This document shows, in pieces, positions 1-57,361 of a stretch of 64,000 nucleotides of DNA. Position 1 is the first letter of the stretch; each line of letters starts with the position of its first letter. Location of the stretch: positions 64,001 to 128,000 of the IMG/VR virus record IMGVR_UViG_3300037483_000453, one strand, 5' to 3'. The position numbers and the translations under genes were made by a program. The notes below the pieces were generated by a model that saw nothing but the letters and a program-made list of their open reading frames with translations, did not search any database and was not told the DNA's origin. This DNA comes from a virus.

Positions 1-2
1 AT

Positions 3-3000
3 CCGTCTCAGATGTTCAGCATCACTACCAACCTCATCCCATTCCTAGGCAACAACTCAGGTAATCGCGCTACGTATGCTGGACAGCATATTGAGCAGGC
101 AATCTCACTGAAGAATCGCGATGCCCCATTGGTACAGGTGGGGACCGGCTCAAGGCAAAAGGGCATTGAGACATTCGAGGGTATTCTGGGACGTCAATCT
201 GGGCACCAGACTGCTGTCAGCGGGAAAGTCGTCTCTGTCAAAGATGACGCTGTCATTGTCAAGGGCCGCGACGGCGACCATGAAGTTCAACTCTACAATA
301 ACTTCCCGTTGAACGATCCGAAAGCGATGTTGCATTCAACCCCGGTTGTCAAGGTAGGGCAGCTGGTCAAGGCGGGTGATACTGTAGCGGACACCAACTT
401 TAGCAAAGGTGGCACCCTCGCTTTGGGTGCAAACCTACGCGTCGCCTATATCCCGTATAAGGGCTACAACTTTGAAGATGGCGTAGTCATTAGTGAGAGT
501 GCCGCTAACAAGCTCACTAGCGAGCACATGCATAAGCCTGAGGTGACACTCGATAAAGGCGTAGTCACCAACCCACGTAAGTACCTTGTACAGCACCCAG
601 ACACCTACGGTAGGAGTCAGCTGGGCAAACTGGACGACGATGGTGTGGTGCGCGTTGGTCAAAAGGTAAAGACTGGAGACCCATTGGCCTTAGCTATGCG
701 CCCGTTCCAGGCTAAGGACCGTATGAGTCTCCAGGCTATTGGAAGGTCACTATCCGGTCGACACACTGACATCAGCATGCGGTGGCAGTCAGACCATGAC
801 GGTGAAGTTGTGGCCGTGCATAAGGACAAGGGCAAGACGACTGTCCATGTGCGCACTCTGGAGCCCATGCAGCTAGGTGACAAACTTTCAGGGCGGCACG
901 GTAACAAGGGTATTGTCACCAAGATTATCCCTGATAACAAGATGCCACAGACATCAGATGGTCGTCATATCGAGGTAGCCCTAAATCCTTCTGGCGTCCC
1001 AGGTCGTATGAACGTTGGGCAGGTTCTAGAGACCGCAGCCGGTAAGCTAGCCGAGCAGGCTGGTAGGCCTTACATCGTTCATAACTTCAGTGGTGAGGAC
1101 CAGCTTGCCAAGATCAAGCGCAAGTTGAAGCGTGCTGGGCTGTTAGACCAGGAGGAACTTAGGGACCCCATTACCGGTTTGACACTCGGCAAAGCGCTCG
1201 TGGGGCCGCAGCATATGCTCAAGCTTATGCACCAGATTGACAAGAAGAACACGGCACGCTCAGGTATGGCCTTGTCAGGCAGTGAGGAGGACCCCGAAGC
1301 GTACGACAGTAATCTCCTGCCGTCTCAGGGAGGTAAGACTGGTGGCCAGCGCGTGGGTTCTCTAGATCTGTACACACTGCTGGCACACGGGGCTAAGGCT
1401 AACATTCGGGAGATGCAGACGTGGAAGAGCGAGGGGCCCGACCCACAGGCAGACCCAGCCAAACGGTGGCCTTCGCAGCATAGTGACGTATGGGGCGCTA
1501 TCCAGATGGGCGAGTCTTTACCTCCCCCGAGGCCCACGTTCTCTTTTCATAAGTTCACGGACATGCTCAGGGCCACTGGCGTCAATGTAGAGAAGAAGGG
1601 GCACCAGATCAGGTTACTCCCGATGACTGACAACCAGGTACTGGCAATGTCATCTGGTGAGTTATCGAAGCCGGGTGAGGTGGTATACCCCTCGCTGGAT
1701 GCTAATGGTGAATACAAACCAAAGCCTGGCGGTCTTTTTGACACTAAGGTGACGGGTGGTCACAGTGGTAAAAAGTGGTCGCACGTCTCTTTGGCTGAAC
1801 CAATCCCCAATCCGGTTTTTGAGAAGGCTATCCAGCGTATTACTGGGCTCTCCGAGAAGGAGTATTTTGGAGTTGTTCATGGCAAGAAGGCGCTTGATAA
1901 GAACGGCCGTGTGGTCGACTTGGATACAAAGAACACGATGACGGGAGGTCCGGCTGTTGTGGGGCTCTTGGACCAGATTAATGTGCCTAAGGCATTGGCA
2001 GCAGCTGAGAAAGAGCTATCAGCCACCTCTATCCCCAGCGACTACGCTCACCGCGCAAGCACTCCTAAGATCGACAAGCTAGTCAAGAAGGTAAAGTATC
2101 TACGAGCTCTGGAACAAGCAGGTATTGCTCCTTCAGATGCTTATGTACTGAAGAACTTACCAGTCCTACCTCCTGCCATGCGCCCTATCGCCGTCCTTAA
2201 GGATGGGAGTATGCGAGGTGGCGACCTTAACGAGCTTTACAAGAACTTCGGGACCATCAACACAGCTATGAAGGACCCCAGTCAGCAGAAGTTAGGGGAC
2301 GACCAGAAACAAGACTTGCGTGAGAGCCTGTATGATGGCGTGCGTGCACTCACCGGAGTTGGAACACACACCGATCAAACTCATAAGGGCATCATCCACC
2401 AGATTGCTGGCGACCCTGCCAAGGAGGGTTACTTCCAAAATGTCCTCATGTCTCGGCGACAAGACATGTCTATGCGCTCTACTATTGTCCCTGAGCCCGC
2501 GCTAGACCTGGATGAAGTGGGCCTACCTCGAAGTAAGGCTCTCGCACTGTACAAGCCATTTGTGGTACGCAAACTGGTAGAGATGGGGGCAGCACCGCAT
2601 GTACCAGAAGCGCGTGCAATGATTCAGAGGCGGGATCCAGCTGTAAGCAAGGCTCTTGAGCTAGCCGTTGCAGAACGCCCTGTGTTACTGAAGCGTGACC
2701 CCGCATTGCACAGGCATTCGTTGCAGGCATTCAATCCAAGGTTGGTGGGTGGTAAGGCCATTCAGATACACCCCCTTGTGACCAGTGGCTACAACGCCGA
2801 TTTTGACGGCGACAGTTGTGATTTGGATACTCCACTACTTCTTCGTATTCGTGGTGAGATAACTGCTATGACTGGCCGGGAGCTTGAGGCGTTGCTTCAC
2901 CCTGGTGAGGGCAACTACATCCAGGAAGTGCAGGGTATTGAAACAGCTGTGCGGGGGACCTGGGCGCCAGTAAAGACTGTCTCGTTTCATGAAGTGCGAG

Positions 3001-6000
3001 ACAAGAAGCGCTACCGCGTTACTACAAAGAATGGCGCAGCCTTCGTTGTATCCGAGGACCACTCACTTATGGTGAGTGGGCGTGAAATAAAACCAGGGCA
3101 GCTAGAACTAGGCGTGAGGCTGGACACAACAGAGGTACGTGCGGAGGTTGGTGGTTCCTACGACCTAGGTGTGATTCTTGGGCACTATATGGGGGACGGC
3201 AGTGCTGATGAGCGTCGCGTGTCTATTGCGTGTAAGTCTAGGGAGGAGAAGGAGTATCTTATCCGCCTGTGGGAGCAGGAGATGGGGCATCACGTGTCCC
3301 GATGCGAAAACAACGATTACTTCCAGATTTACAATCGCGAAGTAGCTGCCAGGGTGCTCGAGGTAGCCGGCCGATACTGTGAAGGGAAGTTCGTTGGTCC
3401 CTCTCTTTTGTCTGGTGGTAGGGACACATTGTCAGGATTGCTATCTGGTTATATTTTGGCTGACGGCTCTGTAGAGGTTACGCATAGTGGCAGCTACCTA
3501 GTCCGTACTTGGTCACGGTCCAAGAAGCTTCGCGACGGCATGTATGCAGTTGCTTGTCTTCTCGGGGTGCCGTGCTCTGTACGTGAACGAGGGGACCAGC
3601 ACGGTAAGAGGAACTACATAATCTCATTTGGTAAAGAAGCCATAAAGCTCCTGGATTACCGGTGCCCCGGCAAGAAGGGCGAGCTAATCGCACGTGCACG
3701 ACAAGACTACATAGAGTCACGTAAAGATAATCGAGTATCGCAGAGTGCCCGTGGATATGAGGTGAGCGCTATAGAGCTCGCCGACGATGACGAGCGCATG
3801 CTTGACCTAGAAGTAGATCATGAAGAGCACGTGTTTTGTCTTGCCTCTGGAGTGCTGCTGCATAACACAATGAGCGCCTATGTGCCCATCTCAGATGAAG
3901 CTGTAGCTGAAGCACGAAATATGATGCCCAGTTCCAACTTGTATAGTGAAGCGTCAGGACGTGTTGTATACACTCCCACGCTCGAGAGTGCCCTCGGTAT
4001 CTACAAGTTGGGGCGCATTGATAAGACCACAAGTAAGAGCTTCAAGACTTCGATAGATGCACTGCAGGCTGTGAATGCAGGGAAGCTGGGGATCAATGAT
4101 GTGGCTGCAATTGGCGGGCTAAAGACAACTGCAGGTCGGGTGCTTCTAGCTAGTGCACTTCCAGAGCCCATGCAGAGCAAAATGCTGATGGCACACAAGC
4201 CTTTGGACAAGCGCGGCATGGGTAATCTATTTCGTGACCTGGCTGATAAGTTCAAGGGTGACTATGGGGAGACTGCAAACAAGCTAAAGGACATTGGTAA
4301 TGGGGCAGCCTCTGGTGCGGTGCCTGTGCTTCATGGGCGAAAGGGGCCAGCTGCCATTCGGCTAGCTGAGAACCCCAAAGATCTGAAGTATGTGTCGATC
4401 CCAGTGCACTCACTTAGCCTGGATGACTTCGAGCCTGACCGTCTGTCTCGCGACGCAGCGCTGCGCGTGGCCGAGCGCGAGGTAGCTGTCATCGAGAGGT
4501 CTTCACTACCCAAGCGAGAGAAAGACCGCCGGTCTATCGAGGCATGGGTAGGGGCATCCAAGAAAATGGACACCGCACACATGAAGAAGATGGATGCTAA
4601 CCCAACAAACTTGGCTATCATGCTGAAGGCAGGCGTGAAGCCGAGCTCCACACAATATAAGCAGATGGTCCTGTCGCCTGTGCTCATGTCTGATGCAGCT
4701 GGTAACCCCATCAACCAGCCCATCAAGAAGTCGTACTCCGAAGGTCTAGACTTGGCGAGTTACTGGACTCAGCAGCAGGGTGCCCGGCGTGGCACAGTCA
4801 TGAAGGTGCAGGAGGTGCGGGAGCCGGGCACCTTTACCAAGCGTATGATTCAAACAACCATGGGGTTGGTGGTGTCTGGTAATGACTGCGGTACCACCCG
4901 TGGTGTGGCCATGAGTATCGGTAACAAGAATGTCCATGACCGGCGCTTGGCGGCAGATGTGAGTGCCAAGGATGCGAAGTTTAGTGCGGGCACGCTGTTG
5001 ACACCTCAGATTGTCGATCAAATCAAAGCTGCGGATAAGGGGGCCACGGTGGTGGTTCGCAGCCCTTTGAAGTGTGAGCATGCGAAGGGTCTTTGCAAGA
5101 AGTGCGCGGGTCTTCGTCCCAACGGCGATGAGTATGACGAGGGAACAAATGTTGGTGTCATAGCTTCCCAAGCCCTGGGTGAGCGCTCTGTACAGTTGAC
5201 CATGAAAGCCTTCCACTGCCTGCATGGCCAGTCCATGATTTTGGTGCGACGTGGCGACATCATTGAGCACACAACCTTGGAAAGGCTGTTCAGCGTCTCT
5301 AAACCGCTAGGGACAGAGTTCGATGCCGACATCGGAGTGATGGAGGACGTCTCCAGTGTCAGCAGTGTGGAGGTTTGGGACCAAACAGGCTGGGTGACAA
5401 TCGAGAAAGTCATGCGACATATGCAGCAGCCTGGTACGGCGATGGCCGCTGTTCGGACGCGGTCTGGTTACATTTCTGTTAGCCAGGACAATCATCCGCA
5501 CATGCTTAGGGAAAATGAAGCGCTGTGTGCGCTCTGTGGAACAGTCCCGAAGTACTCCAATGGTGGGCGGCAGTACTACTGTCGAAAGTGCAGCAAAGTG
5601 TGGGTTGGGTTGCCAGCCGATACAGCTGAAAATCATATGATTGCACCCTCTGATATTGGGAAATCAACACACAGGGCAACTGTAGATTGTGGGCCAGAGC
5701 CGACTGCTACAGTCCCCGTAGTCGAGGACGGGTGGTTAGCGGGTATCTACTGTGCAGAGGGCTCTGTTCAGGTCCGCAACAAGGGTGGTAAGCCGTACCC
5801 ATGTGCTATTCAAATCTCGCAGCTGCCCGGTGAGATCTACACGAAGATTGGCGAAGCGTTGTACGCGGCTACAGGCAAACGTGGGGCACAACCTCGCTAC
5901 CACCAGGTGTACGGGGTAGACCTGGCAGAGAAGTGGCCGAGGTGGTTTGGCCGCTATTCGAACAGCAAAGGTCTGCCAGACGGCTGGAGCGGATATGGCC

Positions 6001-7259
6001 GCAAGTGGCTCGCTGATTTCGTGTCCGGTGTGATCGATGGTGACGGAACGCTAAAGGGCAATGATGATAGTGCGTGGATTACGTGTCGCATTGATACGAC
6101 TAGTTTCTTGGTGGCACAACAACTTCATTGGATCTTGCGGAGTCTGGGTGTGTTCTCTCGCGTAGTCCTCACCAAGTGGAGAGAGCGCTCGCTGAACCAG
6201 GGCTTGGCTGTATATTTTACAGTGACGGAGGAGGCTGTCGAGACACTCTCAGCTTCTATCAAGCTCAAGGGGGTACCAGGGAAGCCCCAGGCTAACTCGG
6301 AAAGGTTTGAGGATGTCGTCGACTATTTCAAGGCCTTCACGTTTCTCTCTCCGCCTGTCGTGTACGATATCAAGACTGCGAGTGGTACGTTCTTTGTGAA
6401 CGGTATCTTGACCCATAATTCGGGGGGCGTAGTTCAATCTGCCGGTACCTCTCGCGCAGTTAACGACTTTGAGCGAATAAAGCAGCTGACAGACTTGACC
6501 GAGAACATTCCCAACTCTGCAACTATAGCCATGCATTCAGGGACCATTGGCAAGGTAGAGAAAGACCGCACAGGCATGAATGTTTGGGTCGGTGGTCTAC
6601 GGCATCATGTTGGTAAGGACCCCACAGGCGCTGGGCTGCATGAAAATCTCCCACATGCTACCAAGTTTGAGGAGTATAAATCATGGCGTCCGCCTAAGGT
6701 CGGCATGCGAGTGCGAGCAGGGGAGACACTGTCCGATCCAAATCGCACGAACATAAATCCTAGGGATCTCTACAGGGCCACCAACGATATGGAAACAGTC
6801 CAGAACTTTCTCGTTGATGAGCTCGGGGGCATCTATGGAGATGACGTTCGAAGGCAGCATGTAGAAACTGTGGTTCGCGCGATGGGAAACTTGACTAAGG
6901 TTCGCGACCCAGGTGATGCAAAGGATGTTCTGCGTGGTGAGTTCCAGTCTGCTTCAGCAATCCGAGCCCAGAATAGGGAGCTTTCAAAGCAAGGGCTGAA
7001 GCCTATTGAACACTCGCCGGTGCTCAAGGGCGTAGATAGTATGCCCTTGTCTGTCCAGGAGGACTGGATGGCCAAGATGCAGCATATCAAGTTGAAGAGC
7101 ACGTTTATGGATGCTGCTGCTGTCGGTGCCCACTCCGACATACATGGGGTAAACCCAATCCCTGGGGTGGCCTATGGTGCAGAGTTTGGCCTGACGTCCA
7201 AGGACAGCCTCAAACCTGGCCTGGGCCACTTGAAGGATGTCCCCATCTATGCCTACTAG
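3..7259 (+). CDS. rpoBC: Phage-encoded multisubunit DNA-directed RNA polymerase, beta-beta' fusion, with two inteins; 5' end lies upstream of the window
   Basis: Beta motifs (PSQMFSITTNLIPFLGNNSGNRA, GYNFEDGVVISES, GDKLSGRHGNKG, LNPSGVPGRMNVGQ, GGQRVGSLD) and beta' motifs (LKRDPALHR, NADFDGD, bridge helix GARRG, QLTMKAFH trigger loop, DCGT...CEHAKGLCKKC Zn site) lie in one ORF. The frame is open back to position 3, so it is 5'-truncated. Confidence 0.96.
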   Translation, partial: PSQMFSITTNLIPFLGNNSGNRATYAGQHIEQAISLKNRDAPLVQVGTGSRQKGIETFEGILGRQSGHQTAVSGKVVSVKDDAVIVKGRDGDHEVQLYNNFPLNDPKAMLHSTPVVKVGQLVKAGDTVADTNFSKGGTLALGANLRVAYIPYKGYNFEDGVVISESAANKLTSEHMHKPEVTLDKGVVTNPRKYLVQHPDTYGRSQLGKLDDDGVVRVGQKVKTGDPLALAMRPFQAKDRMSLQAIGRSLSGRHTDISMRWQSDHDGEVVAVHKDKGKTTVHVRTLEPMQLGDKLSGRHGNKGIVTKIIPDNKMPQTSDGRHIEVALNPSGVPGRMNVGQVLETAAGKLAEQAGRPYIVHNFSGEDQLAKIKRKLKRAGLLDQEELRDPITGLTLGKALVGPQHMLKLMHQIDKKNTARSGMALSGSEEDPEAYDSNLLPSQGGKTGGQRVGSLDLYTLLAHGAKANIREMQTWKSEGPDPQADPAKRWPSQHSDVWGAIQMGESLPPPRPTFSFHKFTDMLRATGVNVEKKGHQIRLLPMTDNQVLAMSSGELSKPGEVVYPSLDANGEYKPKPGGLFDTKVTGGHSGKKWSHVSLAEPIPNPVFEKAIQRITGLSEKEYFGVVHGKKALDKNGRVVDLDTKNTMTGGPAVVGLLDQINVPKALAAAEKELSATSIPSDYAHRASTPKIDKLVKKVKYLRALEQAGIAPSDAYVLKNLPVLPPAMRPIAVLKDGSMRGGDLNELYKNFGTINTAMKDPSQQKLGDDQKQDLRESLYDGVRALTGVGTHTDQTHKGIIHQIAGDPAKEGYFQNVLMSRRQDMSMRSTIVPEPALDLDEVGLPRSKALALYKPFVVRKLVEMGAAPHVPEARAMIQRRDPAVSKALELAVAERPVLLKRDPALHRHSLQAFNPRLVGGKAIQIHPLVTSGYNADFDGDSCDLDTPLLLRIRGEITAMTGRELEALLHPGEGNYIQEVQGIETAVRGTWAPVKTVSFHEVRDKKRYRVTTKNGAAFVVSEDHSLMVSGREIKPGQLELGVRLDTTEVRAEVGGSYDLGVILGHYMGDGSADERRVSIACKSREEKEYLIRLWEQEMGHHVSRCENNDYFQIYNREVAARVLEVAGRYCEGKFVGPSLLSGGRDTLSGLLSGYILADGSVEVTHSGSYLVRTWSRSKKLRDGMYAVACLLGVPCSVRERGDQHGKRNYIISFGKEAIKLLDYRCPGKKGELIARARQDYIESRKDNRVSQSARGYEVSAIELADDDERMLDLEVDHEEHVFCLASGVLLHNTMSAYVPISDEAVAEARNMMPSSNLYSEASGRVVYTPTLESALGIYKLGRIDKTTSKSFKTSIDALQAVNAGKLGINDVAAIGGLKTTAGRVLLASALPEPMQSKMLMAHKPLDKRGMGNLFRDLADKFKGDYGETANKLKDIGNGAASGAVPVLHGRKGPAAIRLAENPKDLKYVSIPVHSLSLDDFEPDRLSRDAALRVAEREVAVIERSSLPKREKDRRSIEAWVGASKKMDTAHMKKMDANPTNLAIMLKAGVKPSSTQYKQMVLSPVLMSDAAGNPINQPIKKSYSEGLDLASYWTQQQGARRGTVMKVQEVREPGTFTKRMIQTTMGLVVSGNDCGTTRGVAMSIGNKNVHDRRLAADVSAKDAKFSAGTLLTPQIVDQIKAADKGATVVVRSPLKCEHAKGLCKKCAGLRPNGDEYDEGTNVGVIASQALGERSVQLTMKAFHCLHGQSMILVRRGDIIEHTTLERLFSVSKPLGTEFDADIGVMEDVSSVSSVEVWDQTGWVTIEKVMRHMQQPGTAMAAVRTRSGYISVSQDNHPHMLRENEALCALCGTVPKYSNGGRQYYCRKCSKVWVGLPADTAENHMIAPSDIGKSTHRATVDCGPEPTATVPVVEDGWLAGIYCAEGSVQVRNKGGKPYPCAIQISQLPGEIYTKIGEALYAATGKRGAQPRYHQVYGVDLAEKWPRWFGRYSNSKGLPDGWSGYGRKWLADFVSGVIDGDGTLKGNDDSAWITCRIDTTSFLVAQQLHWILRSLGVFSRVVLTKWRERSLNQGLAVYFTVTEEAVETLSASIKLKGVPGKPQANSERFEDVVDYFKAFTFLSPPVVYDIKTASGTFFVNGILTHNSGGVVQSAGTSRAVNDFERIKQLTDLTENIPNSATIAMHSGTIGKVEKDRTGMNVWVGGLRHHVGKDPTGAGLHENLPHATKFEEYKSWRPPKVGMRVRAGETLSDPNRTNINPRDLYRATNDMETVQNFLVDELGGIYGDDVRRQHVETVVRAMGNLTKVRDPGDAKDVLRGEFQSASAIRAQNRELSKQGLKPIEHSPVLKGVDSMPLSVQEDWMAKMQHIKLKSTFMDAAAVGAHSDIHGVNPIPGVAYGAEFGLTSKDSLKPGLGHLKDVPIYAY
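2814..3866 (+). mobile_element. Intein with LAGLIDADG homing endonuclease in RNAP beta', immediately after NADFDGD (351 aa)
   Basis: Starts S-C-D-L-D-T-P-L (block A-like) and ends VLLHN with +1 Thr. LAGLIDADG-like ILGHYMGDG and LLSGYILADG. Excision gives NADFDGD-TMSAYVP, colinear with bacterial NADFDGD-QMAVHVP. Confidence 0.92.
5217..6419 (+). mobile_element. Intein with LAGLIDADG endonuclease in the RNAP beta' trigger loop (401 aa)
   Basis: Starts CLHGQSMI, ends GILTHN, +1 Ser. LAGIYCAEG and FVSGVIDGDG motifs. Excision restores QLTMKAFH-SGG. Confidence 0.93.
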
Positions 7260-7265
7260 GAAAGC

Positions 7266-8534
7266 ATGTCGTCCCTCCCCGGCGTAGGCAGCGAGACACC
7301 GGACCCGAGCCAGCGATCCATGTTTAGGTCTTCCTGGACAACACAGGAGGGCGTGGGTACGGCCATGATCGTGGAGTGCAAAGTCGTTGACCTAAACCCC
7401 GTTCTATGGACGGTGGATTGCATCTCTCAGTTCGATCAAAAATGGTACCTCAACATACAAGTTGGGTCCCCCTACATGCATTCCAAGAGGGGTGAGGGCA
7501 TCTACGTAATGCCCGAGATCGGGGCCAAATGTCACGTATGCATACCCAGCGATAACTGCCCACCGTTTGTACTCGATTTCATTATGCCACAGGAATCAGT
7601 ACTTGATGCCACATCGGATGATGCACCAGAAGGTACAGAGAAACCTACGGACTCAACTTTTGCCGGCGGTCGTTTACGAGCCAAGCCAGGCGATATCATC
7701 ATGCGGGGCCGAGATGGCAATTTCGTGATCTTGCACCGAGGAGGTGTTCTGCAAGTTGGGTCAAGTGATCTGTCTCAGAGGATTTACATACCGTTGCGTA
7801 ACCTGGTGTGTGACATCAGTCAAAACTACCAGCATTACAACTCGGGTGGTTCAATCAACTGGTTTCTTGCATCGGGTGAATCAGATACCAATCCATCTAC
7901 TATTCGCAAGGAAACCTATAGGCTGTTGGCGGGTGATGCGAGGGCCACTATTCGAGTGGCCTACGGCCCTCTGAAGGACATGGTTCCAGAGCCCCAGAAC
8001 GGAGCACAGTCTGACCTGAGTCAGCTGGGTATCGGTACTGAGGAGGACGGGCCCGTTGTGGTTGAGGTGGTCATCGCTCCCGATGGTTTTAGCGCTGATA
8101 ACGGCTCACCTGATGGCAGCACACCAGATCAAACAGTTCTCAGGTATTTCTTCGACAAGAAAGGCAGCGTGTTCATGAGGAGTGAGGGCAGCGTCCTTCT
8201 CCACGTAAGGAGGAAGCTCCGGCTGGTAGTGGGGGACAACATTGACATCACAGCAAAGAAGAGCTTCACGTTGACTGTGTCTGACACAGCGAGAATCGAT
8301 GGTGGGAAGTTGTTAGAGCTCACGGGTAAAGTGACAAAGATCAACGGTGGTACGAAACCTTGTGCTCATGTAGGTTCCATTGTTGAATGTCACATTACAG
8401 TCCCGTGGGTAGTGGTAGCACCTGGCCTCCCACCAGCGGTAATCGGCACGGTCTTGCCTATCAATCCACTAACCGGGCAGCCACAGACGGTAAAGGGTAC
8501 TATTGTTAGTGGTAACCCAACGATCCAAGTATGA
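7266..8534 (+). CDS. Baseplate central spike (gpV/gp5-like OB fold, beta-helix, PAAR-like C-terminus)
   Basis: N-terminal VECKVVD...EGIYVMPEIGAKCHV resembles the gpV/gp5 OB fold. Beta-strand repeats follow, then a C-terminal INGGTKPCAHVGS...GTIVSGNPTIQV. Confidence 0.65.
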   Translation: MSSLPGVGSETPDPSQRSMFRSSWTTQEGVGTAMIVECKVVDLNPVLWTVDCISQFDQKWYLNIQVGSPYMHSKRGEGIYVMPEIGAKCHVCIPSDNCPPFVLDFIMPQESVLDATSDDAPEGTEKPTDSTFAGGRLRAKPGDIIMRGRDGNFVILHRGGVLQVGSSDLSQRIYIPLRNLVCDISQNYQHYNSGGSINWFLASGESDTNPSTIRKETYRLLAGDARATIRVAYGPLKDMVPEPQNGAQSDLSQLGIGTEEDGPVVVEVVIAPDGFSADNGSPDGSTPDQTVLRYFFDKKGSVFMRSEGSVLLHVRRKLRLVVGDNIDITAKKSFTLTVSDTARIDGGKLLELTGKVTKINGGTKPCAHVGSIVECHITVPWVVVAPGLPPAVIGTVLPINPLTGQPQTVKGTIVSGNPTIQV

Positions 8535-12838: not shown

Positions 12839-13052
12839 TTGACACGCGTACGTCCCAACCCTTTTCTTTAGCAAAGAGTTTGATGTAGATCCGCACTGCA
12901 GATCGGGCCTCCTTAGGAACTGAATGCCAGAGTCTAAACCCAACGAGGGTACCTTCGGGTTCCTCCTGTGTAACCGTGGCAGACCCAGGGACTATATGGC
13001 CGCCGGCACGATCAAGAGAGGCACGAAGTTCGTCTACCCAGGTTTGAATCAT
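12747..13052 (-). CDS. Hypothetical protein (uncertain)
   Basis: 101-aa ORF with protein-like composition, but it overlaps neighbours at both ends. Confidence 0.3.
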   Translation of the reverse strand: MIQTWVDELRASLDRAGGHIVPGSATVTQEEPEGTLVGFRLWHSVPKEARSAVRIYIKLFAKEKGWDVRVSIRKFAIEFVVLGPYAPPTPRKSGRGTWGGR

Positions 13053-15876
13053 GGCAGCTGAGGTTGCCTATCCTGGGTATACCGAGGAGGAGCTGGTTGA
13101 CAGAGAAATCTGGAAACCTGAGCCTGGCATCGAAGAGGACCCTATCTTGATTACCAGGGCACTCAAGGCCCTGCCAAAGATACCTAGAGTCCTGCCATCG
13201 CGGTTCACCACGTTTGCATTCAAGATGCCAGACGAGATTGGGCAGGGGTACTCTAGCTTCTCCTTCGAAGGTCGCCGCCATGTCAAGCGGATGTATGACA
13301 CGCCGGCAAAGCGGATCCTACTGTTCTGCGGGCGCCAGGTAGAAAAAAGCACGCTGCTCGGCAATATAGCGCTCTGCTACATGAGTATGGTGCAGTCGTA
13401 CAAGGTCCTGTACGTGTCCCCGTCGGCGACACAGACGAAGACTTTCAGCGCCGACCGCATCAAAGAACCGATTGAGACGAGCCCAATCCTCAAGAAGTTC
13501 ACAACGAGCATGCTCTCTGCCAACATTCTGGAGAAGCAGTTTGTCAATCGTTCGAAGATTACGATGCGGTATGCATTCCTCAATGCGGATCGAACACGCG
13601 GAATTCCAGCTTGGATGCTGCAGCTGGATGAGTTTCAAGACATCTTGTCTGACAACATACCGGTCATCGAGCAGTGCCTTTCTCACGCTCCTGAGAGATG
13701 GAAGCGCTTCCTATATGCAGGTACACCAAAGAGTCTAGACAATAACATCGAATACTACCGTGAACGGCTATCCACACAAGGTGAGTGGGTAGTGCCATGC
13801 GAGCGACACAAGCCGGCACACTGGAATATCCTGGGTGAAAAGAACATTGGTAAGAAGGGACTGACGTGTGAGAAGTGTGGTGAGCTCATAGACCCAATGG
13901 GGGCACGGGCACAGTGGGCCCGTATGGTTTACGAGGCGCCTTTTGAGAGTTATCGCATTCCTCAGCTGATGGTTCCATGGAAGCCGTGGAGCGATATACT
14001 TCTCGACTACGAAAGGTACCCAAGAGATAGGTTCTATAACGAGGTACTGGGCATCTCATACGATTCTGGGTTGCGGCCACTAACCACAGAGCATCTGAGG
14101 GCCGTGTGTAACCCCAACGTCCACATGGTCGACTTTGAGAGCTACCGAGATCTCTCGTTCAACCAGCCTATCTTTGCCGGGATTGATTGGGGCTGCCACG
14201 ATGAAGAGACGCGCATTCTTACGACTACAGGCTTCAAGCATTTTAGGGACTTGAAGGATACTGACCATGTGGCGCAGTGGGAACCCGACACTCGGACTAT
14301 GACGTTCGTGATACCCAAGGTTCGAACTGTCCGAGAATGGAAGAAGCCGTTGCTGCACTTTCAGACGAAGGGTGGCATGGACTTGATGGTCACAGACCCG
14401 CACCACATGAGGGTGGGCGTTCAACAAGGCAATCGTTGGATCACAGAATCGGCTGGTGAGACGGCTGCTCGCGGCGGCAATGTGAAGTTCGTCGGCTACG
14501 TGAACTGGGTTGGCGACGAGCGTGACTATTTCACGTTGCCAGGATCTCCGACGAGCCCAGGATATGAAGGCAGCAAGCCGACTACTATCAAGATGGATGA
14601 TTGGCTGGAGTTCCTTGGCTATTATCTGTCCGAGGGCGGACTATGTTTGAAGGAGCTCAAGAGTGGTGAGCTGAGTCCATACTGCATAAAGATGTCTCAG
14701 CGGGAGACTGTGAATGCCGAGTCCGCTGCCAAGATGATGGACTGCATGAGCCGGGCTGGAATACCGTTCTCCACATTCCCTAATCCAAAGACGGGCGACA
14801 TCAACTGGACGATTTGTGGCAAGCAGTATTGGTCTTGGTTCCAAGACAACGTTGGCATGACGGGTGATGTCAAGAGAATCCCACGCCAGTTCCTCGAGCT
14901 TGGTCAGCGTCAGCTTCAGATTCTGTTCGATGCCATGATGCTGGGTGACGGAAGCTACGATGAACGCGAAGGCTGTACTGGAGGTGCGTACTACTCCACG
15001 TCCAAGGGACTGTGCGAAGACTTCCAGGAGATTTGTATCAGACTCGGTCTTCGGTGCATCGTGCGCTTGCATAAACCAGCTGAGGGAAACCGCAAGACAC
15101 GTTGGCGAGTTCTCTGGTCAGAAGGACGAGACTTTCAATTGAACACGCCCAGCTCCCGTGTAGAGCGTGTGCCCTACGATGGCAAGGTGTACTGCTGCGC
15201 GGTCCCGTCAGGCTATATTGTGACGGAGCGTAATGGCTGCATTTCCTATCAAGGGAACACGGGTGAAAATACGTATACAGTGATAGTGCTAGGTACTTAC
15301 GTGGACATGAAGATGCGTACCTTTTATGCCCACCGCTTCACGGGTGAAGAGGTTGATCCTCCAATGCAGCTTGAGAGGATCTGTGAGCTTATCCGTTACT
15401 TCAATGTTCGTGTGGTTGGTACTGATTACGGGGGTGGCTTCGATCGCAATGATCATCTCATCCGTGCGTTCGGCCCCAAGCGCATTTGGAAGTATCAGTA
15501 CGTAGCCAAGACTACCCGTAAGGTCAACTGGGATGCCAAGCTTGGCCGGTTCTTAGCACACCGTACTGAGGTGATGAGTGACATCTTCAATGCCATCAAG
15601 CGCGGTAAAGATTGCGAGTTTCCACGTTGGGAAGACTGGCGCGATCCACATGGTCAAGACTTCTTGAACATCTTTAGTGAATACAGCAATACCTTGAAGA
15701 TGATTCAGTACAAGCATGGTGTGGATAAACCTGATGACACTTTCCATGCGTATGTGACTATGTGGCTAGCGTCTATGTTGGTTCAACCACGTGCTGACAT
15801 CATCCTTCCACGCCGTGTCTCAAAAGCGGGTGTGATGGAAGACATGTATCGTGGTCCTACAGAACAAGGACTTTAG
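13051..15876 (+). CDS. terL: Terminase large subunit with intein
   Basis: Walker A-like CGRQVEKST, Walker B LQLDEFQD, coupling motif YAGT, Cys/His Zn module (CERH...CEKC), nuclease motif FAGIDWG, C-terminal KPDDTFHA. Confidence 0.92.
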   Translation: MAAEVAYPGYTEEELVDREIWKPEPGIEEDPILITRALKALPKIPRVLPSRFTTFAFKMPDEIGQGYSSFSFEGRRHVKRMYDTPAKRILLFCGRQVEKSTLLGNIALCYMSMVQSYKVLYVSPSATQTKTFSADRIKEPIETSPILKKFTTSMLSANILEKQFVNRSKITMRYAFLNADRTRGIPAWMLQLDEFQDILSDNIPVIEQCLSHAPERWKRFLYAGTPKSLDNNIEYYRERLSTQGEWVVPCERHKPAHWNILGEKNIGKKGLTCEKCGELIDPMGARAQWARMVYEAPFESYRIPQLMVPWKPWSDILLDYERYPRDRFYNEVLGISYDSGLRPLTTEHLRAVCNPNVHMVDFESYRDLSFNQPIFAGIDWGCHDEETRILTTTGFKHFRDLKDTDHVAQWEPDTRTMTFVIPKVRTVREWKKPLLHFQTKGGMDLMVTDPHHMRVGVQQGNRWITESAGETAARGGNVKFVGYVNWVGDERDYFTLPGSPTSPGYEGSKPTTIKMDDWLEFLGYYLSEGGLCLKELKSGELSPYCIKMSQRETVNAESAAKMMDCMSRAGIPFSTFPNPKTGDINWTICGKQYWSWFQDNVGMTGDVKRIPRQFLELGQRQLQILFDAMMLGDGSYDEREGCTGGAYYSTSKGLCEDFQEICIRLGLRCIVRLHKPAEGNRKTRWRVLWSEGRDFQLNTPSSRVERVPYDGKVYCCAVPSGYIVTERNGCISYQGNTGENTYTVIVLGTYVDMKMRTFYAHRFTGEEVDPPMQLERICELIRYFNVRVVGTDYGGGFDRNDHLIRAFGPKRIWKYQYVAKTTRKVNWDAKLGRFLAHRTEVMSDIFNAIKRGKDCEFPRWEDWRDPHGQDFLNIFSEYSNTLKMIQYKHGVDKPDDTFHAYVTMWLASMLVQPRADIILPRRVSKAGVMEDMYRGPTEQGL
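14194..15258 (+). mobile_element. Intein with LAGLIDADG endonuclease in the TerL nuclease motif (355 aa)
   Basis: Starts CHDEETRILT, ends ISYQGN, +1 Thr. FLGYYLSEG and LFDAMMLGDG motifs. Excision gives GIDWG-TGENT. Confidence 0.9.
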
Positions 15877-20520: not shown

Positions 20521-23385
20521 GTGCTGAAGGTCAGCCATTTCCAGGGTCAGTCTGACTATGGCGTCACTGCTATCCCACTCTTTGGCAAGGCTGACAAAGA
20601 GTTTGAAAAGCATGCATCTTCTGGGCTGCTCCCTGATGTAGTTCGCTACATTGGGGCGTTACGCCCCAGCCAAAGCTCTCAGTATGTCTTGGTCAACGCC
20701 ATGGGCGCTGGCGAGTGGTACGGCAGTAATGTGAATGGAGATAATTTTCCTGAAGCTGGCCTTATCCACATGCCGCCCAACTGGACCGGTGTACCTGTCA
20801 TAGACATGGTTGTGGCTAAGAACTGGGCTTATGGTTTCCCGACGTTCTATAACGCGCATCCCTATGCGCACCACCGTAACAAAGACCCCGGGCGTGCATT
20901 CGGTAATGTGGAACTTGCCACGTGGAACCCACTCATGCGGCGTGTCGAGCTTGTGGTGCGCGTGGATCAGGATAAGTGCATGAGGTATGGGGGCGAGGGT
21001 GTCTGGGATAAGCTGCGTCTTGGGCAGCACCCCGATGTGTCCATGGGTACTCGAGTTCCTTATGACACATGTTTTCCAGCCGGGACCCTTGTCAGAACTG
21101 CCGAAGGCCACAAGGCCATAGAGGATTTGCAACGGGGCGAGTTTGTACTGACGCACACCGGTAAGCTGCTTCAGGTCACGGATACAATGCGGAGGGAGAC
21201 TCAGGATCTTCTTCGCGTACGCTGCTCTGGGCTACCAGATATAGATGTTACTGACAACCACGAGTTCTTGGTGCTGCGGAAAGAGCAGGCCAGGACGTGT
21301 AAAGGTTCGGCGAACGGGCAGAGAGTGCGGCACACGTTCCGGGACGAGTCTAGTACGTGTTCAAGATGCGGTCGTACCCAAGAGTATGAGTTGGACTGGG
21401 CAGCGGTGGAGACGTTGAAGCCAGGTGACTACGTTGCTGTCCCAGCCCATAGGAACAGCGGCTCCTTTGAAGTGTCACCAATCCGCGCTCGGGTAGCGGG
21501 GTATTACCTGGGTGACGGCTACATTCTCAAGCAGCGCACAGGTAAAAAGAAGGATGGTGATTACCGTGACATGGGCGTGGGCTTCTCTGTTGGAACGGTA
21601 GAGGAAGCCCACCTTCAGAGACTCTTGTCAGCTCTCTCTGAGCTAGGGAGCAAGAACGAAGCGCTAGTTTATGATGCTGGCTGCGGTAGGAAAGCGCATA
21701 TAGTCAGCTTGTTCGACCAGGGTCTAGCAGCCTGGCTACAACAGACAGTGGGGAGAACATCCCACGGCAAGCGCATCTCTTCAGAGGTGTACTGCTGGAA
21801 TGAGGAGGCCAGGCTAGAGCTTGTTGCTGGGTACATTGATACAGACGGCTCGTTTGACCTTGCCAGTGGGCAGCTAAGAGTTGCTTCGGTAAATAGGGGC
21901 TTGCTCCTTGATGTGCAGCGTCTGCTCCTGTCCCTTCGGATAACAGCTACTGTCTGCTACGGCGGATCATCCACTGGCTTCAGCGAAACTCCGGTAGTCT
22001 GCTGGTACCTAGTTCTGTCCGGAGCCCAGGCCCAGCGATTTCTTGGCCGTTCTGTGAAGGTCCAGAAGCGGGAAGTCTCCTGGGAGTCTCCGCAGTCATT
22101 CTTCTGGGGAGACTATTGGCTTACCCCAGTGAAGGCTATCGAAGAGCTCGACAAGGAGACCTCTGTCTTCAACATCAGCGTAGATCAGGACGAGAGCTAC
22201 GTGGCTGAGGGGCGGGTCGTCCACAACTGTTCTATCTGCCTTGACTGGGATCTTTACAAAGATGTGCAGTCTCGCCCAGGTAGCGAGGCATCGCCAGGGC
22301 GTAAAATCCTAGAGTTCCACAAACAGAAGAAGTCCAAGGACGGGGTGGGCATCCGAGGTCTATCTGTTACTCGAAAAGATTATTGTGAGCATGCCAAGAA
22401 TCAGATGAACAAGATCCTGCCCGATGGCAGGAAGGTCTGGGTCTACAACGACTACCCGCGTTTCTTTGACATCAGCTTTGTTTATATTGGAGCAGATAAG
22501 ACTGCGAAAGTGATGCTCTTTGTATTTCACAATGGGCAGGCCCATTCTGTGAAGTCTTCTGCCGAGGTGGCTGAGGCTATGGGTACCAAGGAGCCTGATG
22601 AGAAGATTGCCTCTGTGCCAGACGAGTTGCTAAAGTCTGCCTTTGGCAAGTTGGCCAGGCCGAAGAAAGCTGAGATCGACAAAAATACTGTTCCCAGCCA
22701 GTTCGCGGGAAAGGCTGTACCTTTGTTGACTGGGGGTGAGCCTGATGTGCCACGTGAAACTTTAGATGGGCTCGGGGCTCTGCCTATCAAAGATGTCTTG
22801 TCCACACTCACTGGCATGGGCATTGTGCTCAAACCACGGGAGTTTCAAAGGATTACGCTGGTTCATCTAGAAAACAGAGACTTAGCTGATGAACTGGATG
22901 ACAAGAATGAAGTGTTTCCTAGGTCAGGCGAGACTAGATGTATGGACCTTGACAAGGACTCGTACAGACCGGGGTTGGCCCGGTTGCTTCAGTCTCTGAT
23001 GTTTGCTCGCTCAGGCCTGGGCCCCCTAGTAGAGAAGCGGGTGCTAGTATCTACGGGTGGGTTTGAAAAGAAAGAAGCAAGCGTGCCTTCCCATCATGGG
23101 GAACTACTCGCTAAGATTGGCTCTGCTTATAACGGCTATCGGCAGAGCGTCATGACACTAGTAGCCCACACACAAGATCTTCTGGCAGCAAGTGGAACAA
23201 GTCCCGAGCTGAGCAAACTGGCGTGCGCCAGTCCAGAACAGATTTTTACCCCATTGTCTGTTGCCTACCTTCAGTGTGCCCATCTTGATGGGTTTGGGGT
23301 TCCAAGCAATGGGGTGGTAAAACTGTCAACAGACGTAAGTCAACGTGGAGAGGGGTCACCCCTTGAAGAACACGTGGCCAACTGA
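20521..23385 (+). CDS. Prohead maturation protease (HK97/assemblin-type fold) with intein and long C-terminal extension
   Basis: HPYAHHRN, GNVELA, VELVVRVD and DVSMG (candidate nucleophile Ser at 21040), located upstream of scaffold-like genes and the MCP. Confidence 0.75.
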   Translation: MLKVSHFQGQSDYGVTAIPLFGKADKEFEKHASSGLLPDVVRYIGALRPSQSSQYVLVNAMGAGEWYGSNVNGDNFPEAGLIHMPPNWTGVPVIDMVVAKNWAYGFPTFYNAHPYAHHRNKDPGRAFGNVELATWNPLMRRVELVVRVDQDKCMRYGGEGVWDKLRLGQHPDVSMGTRVPYDTCFPAGTLVRTAEGHKAIEDLQRGEFVLTHTGKLLQVTDTMRRETQDLLRVRCSGLPDIDVTDNHEFLVLRKEQARTCKGSANGQRVRHTFRDESSTCSRCGRTQEYELDWAAVETLKPGDYVAVPAHRNSGSFEVSPIRARVAGYYLGDGYILKQRTGKKKDGDYRDMGVGFSVGTVEEAHLQRLLSALSELGSKNEALVYDAGCGRKAHIVSLFDQGLAAWLQQTVGRTSHGKRISSEVYCWNEEARLELVAGYIDTDGSFDLASGQLRVASVNRGLLLDVQRLLLSLRITATVCYGGSSTGFSETPVVCWYLVLSGAQAQRFLGRSVKVQKREVSWESPQSFFWGDYWLTPVKAIEELDKETSVFNISVDQDESYVAEGRVVHNCSICLDWDLYKDVQSRPGSEASPGRKILEFHKQKKSKDGVGIRGLSVTRKDYCEHAKNQMNKILPDGRKVWVYNDYPRFFDISFVYIGADKTAKVMLFVFHNGQAHSVKSSAEVAEAMGTKEPDEKIASVPDELLKSAFGKLARPKKAEIDKNTVPSQFAGKAVPLLTGGEPDVPRETLDGLGALPIKDVLSTLTGMGIVLKPREFQRITLVHLENRDLADELDDKNEVFPRSGETRCMDLDKDSYRPGLARLLQSLMFARSGLGPLVEKRVLVSTGGFEKKEASVPSHHGELLAKIGSAYNGYRQSVMTLVAHTQDLLAASGTSPELSKLACASPEQIFTPLSVAYLQCAHLDGFGVPSNGVVKLSTDVSQRGEGSPLEEHVAN
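21070..22227 (+). mobile_element. Intein with LAGLIDADG endonuclease in the prohead protease (386 aa)
   Basis: Starts CFPAGTLV, ends RVVHN, +1 Cys. VAGYYLGDG and LVAGYIDTDG motifs. Excision gives VPYDT-CSIC. Confidence 0.93.
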
Positions 23386-53981: not shown

Positions 53982-54301
53982 TGAGCTCAGTGAGAACAAA
54001 CCCTGCATACGCATCTTTGGCCTACCGCAGAACCATCATCCACCAGGCCATCACGTACCTGAAGCGTGAGTTTGTGGGGGTAGACGAGGACCCTAAGCAG
54101 AGAATGGTCTGCGAGGAGGTTCTTGCAGTTGATGCAGAAGTGCCCATCGAGGAGGTAGCCAGCTACCTACAGGAGCTCGAGCGGGAAAAACACGAACTAA
54201 CACTGGAACTCGGTAAGTTCGAGTTCACTAGGCGGAATCAGAATGATGACCAAAAGCAGCCAAAAGCGAAGAGTCAAGCGCGGCATAAAAACCGCAAGTA
54301 A
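53978..54301 (+). CDS. Hypothetical protein
   Basis: 107 aa. Confidence 0.5.
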   Translation: MMSSVRTNPAYASLAYRRTIIHQAITYLKREFVGVDEDPKQRMVCEEVLAVDAEVPIEEVASYLQELEREKHELTLELGKFEFTRRNQNDDQKQPKAKSQARHKNRK

Positions 54302-54749
54302 AAAGACCGCTCAAGCCATTGCCAAGAATAACGGTTTGGATATCTCCATGGAGGTTTCGGCCGATCCACTGGTGCAGGGAGCTAAAATTTCAGCTCTTGA
54401 GAAGGCTCTGGAGCGTGTCGTTCACATGTCACAGGTTAACCAGGCCGAGCTCATCAGAGCTTTCCAACTCACCGATGCCCATCTCTGGGTACTTCGTCAA
54501 CTTTGCAAAGACATCGTCACTGACACCGTTATGCTTGTGGACTCGGAAACCCCTGCGGTGAACATGGATGCCTACTACAGCCTTTTCAACGCGAAGCAGC
54601 GGCAGGAGGCTGAGGCCGAGGCCGCTGCGAAGGCGCTCAAAGATGCTGGTGTGACACCTTTGGAGTCTGATAGTCCGGAGGTCTTCGGGGGTACCCCTGC
54701 GGGTCACACCGCAGTACCAACGGAGGAGACCAATGGCGCGCATCCGTAA
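54243..54749 (+). CDS. Hypothetical protein
   Basis: 168 aa. Confidence 0.5.
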   Translation: MMTKSSQKRRVKRGIKTASKKTAQAIAKNNGLDISMEVSADPLVQGAKISALEKALERVVHMSQVNQAELIRAFQLTDAHLWVLRQLCKDIVTDTVMLVDSETPAVNMDAYYSLFNAKQRQEAEAEAAAKALKDAGVTPLESDSPEVFGGTPAGHTAVPTEETNGAHP

Positions 54750-54924
54750 AGGCACTCAGTCCCTGGGCAATGGCAAGGTCATGATCAAAACCAACTCAGC
54801 CAAGGGCGTTAGGAAGATCCGGTGTATGAGGTGTAAGAATCTCGTTGCGCCTTCCCAGGGTAACGACGGTAAGCCGGTCTATCGTTGCATCTGTGGTAGG
54901 TCGTTCCGCAGCACTACAATGTAG
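54733..54924 (+). CDS. Small basic zinc-ribbon protein
   Basis: CMRC...CICG; GGAGGAG RBS. Confidence 0.6.
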   Translation: MARIRKGTQSLGNGKVMIKTNSAKGVRKIRCMRCKNLVAPSQGNDGKPVYRCICGRSFRSTTM

Positions 54925-55306
54925 AGCGGTGCATCAACCAACTCTTCTTCAGCTGCCCTATGATCCTGAAGTGATGCCCGAGATACATCCGGACGGCCCG
55001 ACTGTTCGTCTTCTCCACGCACAGGATGGTGTCCAGCTTGGTGCTTCCGAGCACATCAAGCAGCATTCGGTTCCCCAGGCCTCTGCCTTGGTGAGATGGC
55101 CTCACTCCGAAACGGGTGATGTCCATGATTTCCCAGTCCCAGCGGGCCAGCAGGTAGCTTACGAGCTCGCCTTTTTCATAGATGACAATGCCACCACCGG
55201 CATCGACTTCTCGAGCTAGTGTGCGTTCATTGAAGCTATTGTTGGGGAATAGCTCCATGTCCAGTGCGGCAATGGCCTGGACGTCTGCACTGGTAACGCT
55301 TTGCAT
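54914..55306 (-). CDS. GNAT (RimI-like) acetyltransferase
   Basis: ITRFGVRPSHQGRGLG acetyl-CoA motif and LCVEKTNSRAVRMYLGHHF. Confidence 0.85.
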   Translation of the reverse strand: MQSVTSADVQAIAALDMELFPNNSFNERTLAREVDAGGGIVIYEKGELVSYLLARWDWEIMDITRFGVRPSHQGRGLGNRMLLDVLGSTKLDTILCVEKTNSRAVRMYLGHHFRIIGQLKKSWLMHRSTL

Positions 55307-55344
55307 GACTGGATAGTAACAAAAGATTGTGTTAGGAGGAGCCC

Positions 55345-55596
55345 ATGGAGAGACTCAGCAAAGTTCAGGTGCTCATCAATGGTAAAGGGACTCTCGAGAA
55401 GGAGGTTGATGAGGACATCGCCGCCTTCGCACAGTATTTCTGTGGAGAACTGAAGAATGCTTCACTCTCGAGGCCAGAGCGGGCGATACTGAAGACATAT
55501 CTGTTTTACAAGACACGGGTGTGTGTCTGTGGAGAAGATGATAACAGGGACCCGAGTAAGTCCCTTCCTCATAAGACCTGGTGCCCGCTGGGCTAG
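55345..55596 (+). CDS. Hypothetical protein with C-terminal CxC...H..C
   Basis: AGGAGGAG RBS, 83 aa. Confidence 0.55.
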   Translation: MERLSKVQVLINGKGTLEKEVDEDIAAFAQYFCGELKNASLSRPERAILKTYLFYKTRVCVCGEDDNRDPSKSLPHKTWCPLG

Positions 55597-56021
55597 GCAT
55601 CAGTGTGTTTAAGCTAACTAGGCCCACCTTTGGTGGAAGGCTCATTAGGAGGATCCCAGTGGCAAAGAAGAACGTAGTTGAGATCACTTGTGACCGTTGT
55701 GACCGAACTGAATACGTGGATCCCAGCACGTACAACGTACATGCGGACCTGGAGCTGTACTTTGGACCTAGAAAGGGGGAGCACGAGGCGGATGACATCG
55801 CCGGTCATTCAACATGCGAGATTCTGGCTCATTTCAATGACCTGTGCTCGAGCTGCCGAAAAACGGTAAAGAACCTGTCCGAGCAGATCGCCAAGAAAAT
55901 CTCCTGGAAGCGCAACAAAGGCGGCGAGGAGGAACTCGATGATAAAAAAGGAGGACCAGCGGTCCCCCCTTCTACCCCTACGCTGCGTCTCGAGACTGAC
56001 GGTCAGGTGCCCTCAGTTTGA
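55581..56021 (+). CDS. Zinc-finger protein (true start probably near 55659)
   Basis: ITCDRCD...DLCSSC pattern. Confidence 0.55.
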   Translation: MPAGLGISVFKLTRPTFGGRLIRRIPVAKKNVVEITCDRCDRTEYVDPSTYNVHADLELYFGPRKGEHEADDIAGHSTCEILAHFNDLCSSCRKTVKNLSEQIAKKISWKRNKGGEEELDDKKGGPAVPPSTPTLRLETDGQVPSV

Positions 56022-56628: not shown

Positions 56629-56678
56629 ACATCTCCCGTCTGTGCGATGTTGAACCGTAGGATGCTTGTCCTACAGCT

Positions 56679-56690
56679 TTCTTATCACCG
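56679..56690 (-). promoter_or_regulatory. Repeated motif copy 2 (CGGTGATAAGAA)
   Basis: + strand ttcttatcaccg, 51 nt upstream of ATG 56628. Confidence 0.45.
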
Positions 56691-56711
56691 CACAGACGGG
56701 AGGCTTTGCGT

Positions 56712-56984: not shown

Positions 56985-57068
56985 GGTATTACTCCTTTTT
57001 GCGGGAGCTATTGACAGAACACTAATGCACTGAGAGTAGAAAGTCCAATGGTCAATAAATGCGGAGGT

Positions 57069-57278: not shown

Positions 57279-57361
57279 AGTTTCTCCGTGGGGCTGGGGC
57301 GCACAAGGGCAGTCACCATTGGAAGCTAAAAGAGAGGGCAAAAGCCCTCCCTCTACACTCT

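Follow-up and report, generated by a model that had tools for sequence, protein, structure and literature searches.

A family of large phages encodes the beta and beta' subunits of a bacterial-type RNA polymerase as a single polypeptide

Can a phage carry the catalytic core of a bacterial-type RNA polymerase (RNAP) as one polypeptide, and, if so, how would such an enzyme find its promoters and reach the genes that it reads? The question is raised by a gene at the left edge of a 64,000-nucleotide stretch of viral DNA (the window), which comprises positions 64001-128000 of the 184,901-bp IMG/VR virus record IMGVR_UViG_3300037483_000453 (99% complete according to CheckV). On the + strand, an open frame runs unbroken from window position 3 to a TAG stop at 7257-7259, and TFSFHKFTDMLRATGVNVEKKGHQIRLLPMTDNQVLAMSSGEL is translated across the boundary between beta and beta' without a stop. 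An initial annotation of the window had proposed that the C-terminus of beta joins the N-terminus of beta' through KKGHQ, and we found these residues exactly at 1593-1607 in a continuous frame. The window edge cuts the open reading frame (ORF), which begins with an ATG at record position 61510 (L002:7510), 2,490 nt before the window, and the complete ORF encodes 3,249 amino acids in a frame of ~9.75 kb. Within this one protein, Pfam detected RNA_pol_Rpb2_6 of beta (E 7e-61) and Rpb1_1, Rpb1_2 (E 5e-23) and Rpb1_5 of beta', with Rpb2_6, Rpb1_2 and Rpb1_5 above the cut-off, together with the homing-endonuclease domains LAGLIDADG_3 and Hom_end. Taken together, we regard it as practically certain that this one polypeptide contains the entire catalytic core of a bacterial-type (two double-psi-beta-barrel) RNAP. 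Its parts are listed here in gene order, with a slash marking each point of insertion or fusion.

ORF residues 395-742, upstream of the window, + strand: predicted intein 1, 348 amino acids, within ...DPVRTPE/SEKSG... of the beta ETPE loop.
Window 1..1604, + strand: beta portion, C-terminal 534 residues, with the Rpb2_6 match (E 5e-61 within the window); the natural beta C-terminus is reached.
Window 1593..1607, + strand: beta/beta' junction KKGH/Q, a direct fusion.
Window 1605..2813, + strand: N-terminal part of beta', with Rpb1_1 and Rpb1_2 (E 2e-23 within the window), ending in the catalytic NADFDGD (2793-2813).
Window 2814..3866 (ORF residues 1769-2119), + strand: predicted intein 2, 351 amino acids (SCDLDT...VLLHN, +1 Thr), right after NADFDGD, with LAGLIDADG_3 at E 7e-16.
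Window 3867..5216, + strand: middle part of beta' (TMSAYVP...TMKAFH), with Rpb1_5, the cysteines of the second zinc site and the trigger-loop His.
Window 5217..6419 (ORF residues 2570-2970), + strand: predicted intein 3, 401 amino acids (CLHGQS...ILTHN, +1 Ser), with Hom_end and a VSGVIDGDG motif.
Window 6420..7259, + strand: C-terminal part of beta', 279 amino acids plus the TAG stop; the SI3 insertion is absent.

Judged by their sequences, all three insertions qualify as class 1 inteins with a LAGLIDADG homing endonuclease. Their ends read C...GN/S (intein 1), S(C)...HN/T (intein 2) and C...HN/S (intein 3), where the first residue of intein 2 is either the Ser or the next Cys, a choice that rests on the family consensus DGD-T. 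A relative that is 75% identical (L010) encodes an intein-free ORF of 2,160 amino acids in which the four exteins abut to the nucleotide, as they do in most other relatives, and it is this exact abutment that fixes all of the intein boundaries. Within the trigger loop, intein 3 follows the residue that aligns with TFH of E. coli. Because the inteins sit in the ETPE loop, directly after NADFDGD and in the trigger loop, the unspliced RNAP should be inactive, and all three would have to splice out to yield an active enzyme of 2,149 amino acids.

We compared the two halves of this enzyme with their bacterial counterparts. Beta of the intein-free relative (residues 6-1007) aligned to cyanobacterial beta (8gzg_C, residues 19-1044; E 3e-77), and its beta' aligned to B. 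subtilis beta' (6wvj_D, residues 170-1162; E 4e-101). The spliced protein of the window phage was then placed in a MAFFT alignment with Salmonella beta and beta' (1,342 and 1,407 amino acids, lengths as in E. coli), in which beta terminates at its natural C-terminus, with GVNVEKKGH opposite Salmonella GINIELEDE, and beta' begins at approximately residue 19 of the Salmonella or E. coli protein, with no linker between the two. This end-to-end alignment bears out the proposal that the enzyme is colinear with cellular ones, and the length of the junction is identical in 10 family members. In an AlphaFold2 (AF2) model of a 959-amino-acid junction fragment, the last strand of beta (524-529) and the first strand of beta' (532-537) lie two residues apart, an arrangement in which the junction would form a tight hairpin. 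The confidence of that model is moderate (predicted local distance difference test, pLDDT, of 65 overall and ~70-75 locally), and a Foldseek search with the model recovered bacterial beta chains alone.

The enzyme had also been described as streamlined, and its size bears that description out: the spliced chain has 2,149 amino acids versus 2,749 for Salmonella beta plus beta', and it lacks the beta insertions SI1 and SI2, a beta insertion at ~1126-1180, the beta' Cys4 zinc-binding domain (~65-96) and SI3 of the Salmonella enzyme. It keeps NADFDGD, the cysteines of the second zinc site and, in E. coli numbering, beta K1065 and K1073, which are invariant in 11 family sequences. The rifampicin pocket carries the substitutions D516S, H526G, R529Q and S531T (E. 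coli numbering), and H526 is kept in none of the 11 aligned family sequences. Based on these pocket substitutions and the known positions of rifampicin resistance, we predict that the phage RNAP is insensitive to rifampicin.

A single chain of this kind is not peculiar to one phage. Scans of IMG/VR confirmed by tblastn recovered 147 related stretches, and the counts that follow refer to the best 80 of these, which are 34-75% identical over the beta-beta' junction. The entire enzyme lies in a single ORF in 68 of the 80, ~13 of which carry inteins; beta' is split ~83 amino acids past NADFDGD in 8, and a contig end cuts the gene in 4. The contigs with a single ORF come from many samples, and some are complete genomes with terminal repeats. 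We also took the best 150 matches of an exhaustive HMMER search of 1.84 billion representatives of 50% clusters, all 150 of which matched at E<1e-183; 61 have lengths of 1,900-2,200 amino acids and 77 have lengths of 2.2-4.7 thousand amino acids, which fits the addition of inteins. Taken together, these results show that encoding the enzyme as one chain is the rule in an old and large phage lineage with genomes of roughly 160-230 kb.

The cultured members of this lineage in INPHARED are only Salmonella phage Arash and the Vibrio phages D69, D148 and D181, and in the two that we examined, Arash and D69, the C-terminal part of beta' is encoded by a separate gene. Split loci in addition to Arash and Vibrio D69 are L068, L069, L070, L073, L074, L077, L080 and L085, and the break in beta' falls ~75-91 amino acids past NADFDGD in every locus where its position could be placed. 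In the beta tree described below, the sampled split forms make up two groups without a clear sister relationship, as would be expected if a single ancient split had later been reversed by re-fusions or if the same split had arisen twice.

We next consider where in the infection cycle the enzyme would act. Upstream of the RNAP gene lie a portal gene and then four leftward genes, and the RNAP gene itself heads a tightly packed morphogenesis run on the + strand. The order downstream is a gene for a 422-amino-acid protein, four ORFs without assignment, the large terminase, a homologue of Arash gp222, the major capsid protein and homologues of Arash gp233-gp237, where gp222 and gp233-gp237 are structural proteins of Arash. 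The initial annotation had placed the polymerase in a virion operon with the following gene 6 nt away, and both points are borne out: the gene opens a + strand run with a spike-like gene, terminase, capsid and tail, and the next ORF starts at 7266. Arash offers a view of the protein itself, as its gp206 consists of beta plus the N-terminal part of beta'. In purified Arash virions, gp206 gave the most spectra of all proteins (3,516; 100% coverage), above the major capsid protein, while gp216 gave 1,210 spectra and the sigma factor gp10 gave 467 (PMC10585845). Because the gene heads the late block beside the portal and spike-like genes, and because its Arash homologues and the sigma factor are abundant in virions, we consider that the enzyme is probably packaged in the virion and injected.

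Some observations pull the other way. In the Arash preparation, 116 proteins were detected, ribonucleotide reductase and ligases among them, and its authors allow for carry-over of proteins that are abundant during infection (PMC10585845). The K-x-A tag, putatively recognized by the head protease, is not enriched in the RNAP, with 10 occurrences observed versus 15.3 +/- 3.6 expected. Both observations favor an enzyme that is solely intracellular, in which case host RNAP would read the early genes, the phage enzyme would take over the middle and late genes, and the virion signal in Arash, where many of the co-purified proteins are enzymes, would reflect the contamination that the paper raises. 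Such an enzyme is also in keeping with our finding of one beta-barrel match in the whole genome, since a single RNAP makes the two-enzyme scheme of phiKZ impossible. However, an enzyme that acts before the late genes would be oddly sited at the start of the late run, where its gene lies 6 nt from a spike-like one and, in Arash, next to the portal, and carry-over would have to account for a spectral count that exceeds that of the major capsid protein. Furthermore, five leftward intergenic sites (window 17965, 56680, 57583, 58024 and 58231) have in common the motif C(A/G)G(G/T)GATAAGA, which differs from the sigma70 consensus and is compatible with a private promoter. Weighing these points, we judge a strictly intracellular role to be unlikely, at perhaps one chance in a few, and we favor delivery of the RNAP by the virion.

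How would a single chain find promoters? The initial annotation had noted that the window contains no gene for alpha, omega or sigma and had proposed that the enzyme depends on neither alpha nor sigma. Searches of the whole 185-kb genome for alpha (PF01000, PF01193) and omega (PF01192) gave no match at E<=1, with positive controls in 14/14 genomes, so the absence of alpha and omega holds genome-wide; a search for T7-like RNAP (PF00940), run without a positive control, also gave no match. The outcome for sigma was different, since a sigma70-family gene lies outside the window, at positions 136634-137419 of the record (L009:2634-3419), which means that the proposal was right about the lack of an alpha gene, while sigma independence was not supported. 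This gene matches Arash gp10 in tblastn (7e-15) and is located among genes of the structural module, at a position equivalent to that of its Arash counterpart. The sigma-factor family PHROG 351 matches the phage sigma at E 0.002, homologues are present in 10/10 near-complete related genomes of 163-226 kb, and a profile of this sigma family matches chains of RpoS, SigA, HrdB and sigma-F across regions 2-4 (E 3e-16). In addition, 8/11 members of the sigma family match Pfam Sigma70_r3. A search with phmmer, using Arash gp196 and the D69 sigma as queries, detected no second sigma.

The flap-tip region of beta and the clamp-helix region of beta' are the sigma docking sites in bacterial enzymes, and both regions of the phage protein align with their Salmonella counterparts. 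We consider it most likely that the phage's own sigma70-family factor (regions 2-4) recognizes its promoters. Three considerations limit this interpretation: Pfam misses the sigma of the window phage itself (scanned alone, its ORF matches r3 at E 0.15), so that the assignment rests on the family profile; the factor could instead redirect host RNAP; and the phage enzyme might use host alpha or omega. An alternative is that the single chain works independently of sigma, reading promoters alone or through a non-sigma factor, as the enzymes of phiKZ and AR9 do. Such independence would account for a window without a sigma gene and for the deletion of the beta' zinc-binding domain, and it would fit our Pfam scans for sigma regions 2 and 4, which found nothing significant anywhere in the genome. 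A conclusion of 'no sigma' from those scans alone was overturned by the Arash gp10 match and the family profile. Sigma independence is also at odds with the co-occurrence of the sigma70-family gene in 10/10 complete relatives and in Arash, with the alignment of the docking regions and with the recovery of the Arash orthologue of sigma together with the RNAP in virion preparations, and we consider it improbable.

The fused chain could also be a polyprotein that a protease, such as the head protease, cuts into beta and beta' or into smaller subunits, given that relatives of the Arash type function with a separate gene for the C-terminal part of beta'. Against such processing, the junction lacks a linker and is invariant in length across the family, the model leaves a two-residue gap between the strands on either side, and K-x-A is under-represented, with its only fully conserved occurrence inside a conserved beta helix (GKLAE). 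Furthermore, peptides of Arash gp206 cover 100% of the fusion of beta with the N-terminal part of beta' (PMC10585845). We consider cleavage of the chain very improbable, and the interpretation that the fused polypeptide is itself the working enzyme is the one that we carry forward.

The intein-free sequence also allowed us to place the enzyme among cellular and phage RNAPs. We built FastTree trees of beta and of beta' with 34 rows of the family, 78 of bacteria and 3 of other phages, and an IQ-TREE LG+C20 tree of beta with 17 rows of the family, 41 bacteria representing 22 phyla and 3 further phages. The other-phage rows, all of which fall outside the family, were from Carin-5, YerA41, Staphylococcus DC4, Rhizobium TM21B and two Vibrio phages; phiKZ and AR9 were not among them. 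The family was monophyletic in all three trees (support 99, 100 and 91), and the bacteria formed one group that excludes the phage family in all three (support 100, 99 and 99). The trees are unrooted and built without an archaeal or eukaryotic outgroup, and their three monophyletic groups leave either Bacteria or the other phages as the sister of the family. The position of the family is itself open to long-branch attraction, which could draw a fast-evolving viral clade toward the long phage branches beside it and of which the programs warned. Because the family lies outside the bacterial clade, the enzyme is no recent capture from any sampled phylum, and nesting within a bacterial clade with host flanks was not seen; portal and terminase flank the gene. 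Bacterial rpoB and rpoC are adjacent, so that a mis-join might imitate a fusion, and the top identity to bacterial enzymes is only ~27-33%, but faulty assembly or recent capture of rpoBC from a host has next to no probability and is ruled out by the same single ORF in 68 independent viral contigs (some complete, with terminal repeats), by the monophyly of the family outside the bacterial clade and by the phage portal and terminase genes on its flanks. In a scan of genomes from 185,579 species of bacteria and archaea, the best 80 matches listed are likewise only cellular rpoBC with <=33% identity, and they point to no particular host. Read-through of rpoBC among 80 bacterial loci was limited to Wolbachia (L149) and the Candidatus Paceibacterota metagenome-assembled genome DATJQA010000074.1 (L090), and since both of these lie inside Bacteria, the phage fusion is an independent event. 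L090, from a bacterium of the Candidate Phyla Radiation, may thus add to the natural fusions of beta with beta' in cells.

The gene that follows the polymerase had been named a baseplate spike.

Window 7266..8534, + strand: next gene, 422 amino acids, 6 nt downstream of the RNAP gene, which it follows in 48/80 related loci.

The adjacency is certain and several weak signals agree with one another, while the identity of the protein stays at the level of a hint. In the PDB, a profile of this protein family matches best to a Gp5/Vgr OB-fold spike at E 0.029 and to VgrG at E 0.048, one family member matches Phage_base_V (E 0.022), and the neighbors of the protein in the ESM Atlas belong to Phage_base_V, Gp5_OB, Phage_spike and Mu_Gp45 clusters. 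The window's own protein has no match in Pfam or PHROG, and its AF2 model is poor (pLDDT 51). We consider it plausible that the 422-amino-acid protein is a central baseplate spike of the gpV/gp5/VgrG type.

Other genes near the polymerase have features of their own. The portal gene (L002:47-3331; record 54047-57331) encodes 1,094 amino acids, matches the Arash portal in two blocks ~1.15 kb apart and has matches to LAGLIDADG_3 and Hint_2, which mark an intein in the portal as well. The large terminase (window 13051-15876; PHROG 675, E 1e-46) matches Arash TerL at amino acids 71-379 and 732-903, with a weak LAGLIDADG_3 match between the two blocks that probably marks another intein. An ORF of 954 amino acids (window 20521-23385) matches the Arash structural protein gp222 at amino acids 18-194 and 618-703, and its ~420 unmatched residues could be an insertion or an intein. 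Counting this last candidate, as many as six inteins may interrupt essential genes of the phage. Between the portal and RNAP genes, a conserved leftward pair on the minus strand (L002:3389-6072) encodes a MoxR-like AAA_5 ATPase and a DUF2201 metallopeptidase/VWA protein, with homologues detected in 16-17 related loci. Facing these genes from ~50-85 nt upstream of the RNAP start is a promoter-like ATGAAA-18-GATAAT on the minus strand (L002:7425-7460), whose context GGGGATAATAA resembles the GATAAGA motif of the five other leftward sites. A + strand ORF of 123 amino acids that precedes the RNAP gene (L002:7137-7508) has a counterpart in 0/80 relatives and is most likely no gene.

The enzyme can now be set beside systems that are already described. 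Its closest cultured relatives, in Arash, D69, D148 and D181, belong to the same family, with 34-35% identity over beta and the N-terminal part of beta' and a fused beta-beta' junction, and Arash also shares the sigma family, a portal gene close upstream and homologous portal, terminase, capsid and tail genes. In contrast to the window phage, these isolates break beta' ~83 amino acids past NADFDGD, with the C-terminal gene 0.6-4.7 kb downstream, and Arash encodes an additional sigma, gp196, for which no counterpart was detectable in the window phage. The Arash paper labels gp206 simply 'beta' and does not mention the fusion (PMC10585845). The RNAPs of phiKZ and AR9 are likewise phage-encoded, of the cellular two-barrel type and without alpha or omega, and one of their sets is packaged in virions for early, rifampicin-resistant transcription (PMC7598289, PMC7824862). 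Unlike the enzyme described here, which is one polypeptide, present as one set and accompanied by a sigma70-family gene, they consist of 4-5 polypeptides in two paralogous sets with no sigma70 homologue. In the rpoB-rpoC genes of Helicobacter and Wolbachia, the C-terminus of beta is in frame with the N-terminus of beta', as in the window gene. These are cellular enzymes, however, that work with alpha2 and omega, and the Wolbachia sequence falls inside the bacterial clade. Compared with the canonical plan of alpha2-beta-beta'-omega plus sigma, the window phage has a sigma70-family gene, encodes neither alpha nor omega and branches outside Bacteria.

Other phage polymerases resemble the enzyme in part. 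The virion RNAP of crAss-like phi14:2, YonO and the tape-measure-fused RNAP of P23-45 also hold both barrels in one polypeptide, and some such single-chain enzymes are delivered by the virion for early transcription (PMC10770324); by their published descriptions they are highly diverged, whereas the window enzyme is colinear with full-length beta and beta'. The N4 virion RNAP is the precedent for the delivery that we propose, being a giant polymerase encoded among late genes that is packaged, injected and reads early promoters, yet it has a T7-like single-subunit fold and is unrelated. The RNAPs of YerA41, Cobetia Carin-5 and Rhizobium Kleczkowskaviridae have a beta or beta' of near-cellular length that is not finely split, but as separate genes, with 24-26% identity and a position outside the family in the trees. 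Unfused, near-full-length beta or beta' proteins of 927-1,192 amino acids were seen in Carin-5 (L173), YerA41 (L174), Rhizobium RHph_TM21B (L176) and Vibrio Va2 (L177), cultured phages whose proteins belong neither to the phiKZ-like fragments nor to this family. Phage RNAPs of the cellular type are more varied than reviews imply. Reviews of 2020, 2021 and 2026 describe them as finely split and sigma-less, and the 2021 review states that jumbo phages encoding sigma lack an RNAP of their own. In full-text searches of the literature, we came across no report of a phage that combines a bacterial-type RNAP in one chain with a sigma of its own. The lineage described here breaks both generalizations, as it has the least fragmented form possible paired with a canonical sigma.

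Taken together, the explanation that we find best, and which we hold to be somewhat better than an even bet, is a single-chain core that is spliced, most likely uses the phage's own sigma, is accompanied by neither a phage alpha nor a phage omega and is probably delivered by the virion. According to this model, three LAGLIDADG inteins would splice out of the precursor to leave the active chain of 2,149 amino acids, in which the covalent link between beta and beta' would replace the assembly role of the alpha dimer. The phage sigma70-family factor would direct the spliced enzyme to promoters, and the enzyme would be packaged, injected with the DNA and put to work on early genes at promoters specific to the phage, without need of host RNAP and unaffected by rifampicin. 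A stronger version, which we offer tentatively and at slightly less than even odds, is that two polypeptides, the beta-beta' chain of 2,149 amino acids and a sigma of ~260 amino acids, would make up a complete sigma-dependent machine of the cellular type that is carried by the virion, insensitive to rifampicin and without alpha or omega.

If this is true, the phage would provide a minimal model of bacterial-type transcription initiation. Should the chain and sigma suffice, the alpha dimer and omega would be dispensable for core assembly once beta and beta' are tethered, the pair would constitute a two-gene, orthogonal and probably rifampicin-insensitive sigma-dependent system for structural and synthetic biology, and Arash and the Vibrio phages would be a cultivable entry point for tests of virion delivery. 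With inteins inside its catalytic loops, the enzyme would be an example from nature of an essential polymerase that requires protein splicing, and a deep-branching lineage outside all sampled bacterial phyla would be a new data point on the evolution of the beta/beta' core.

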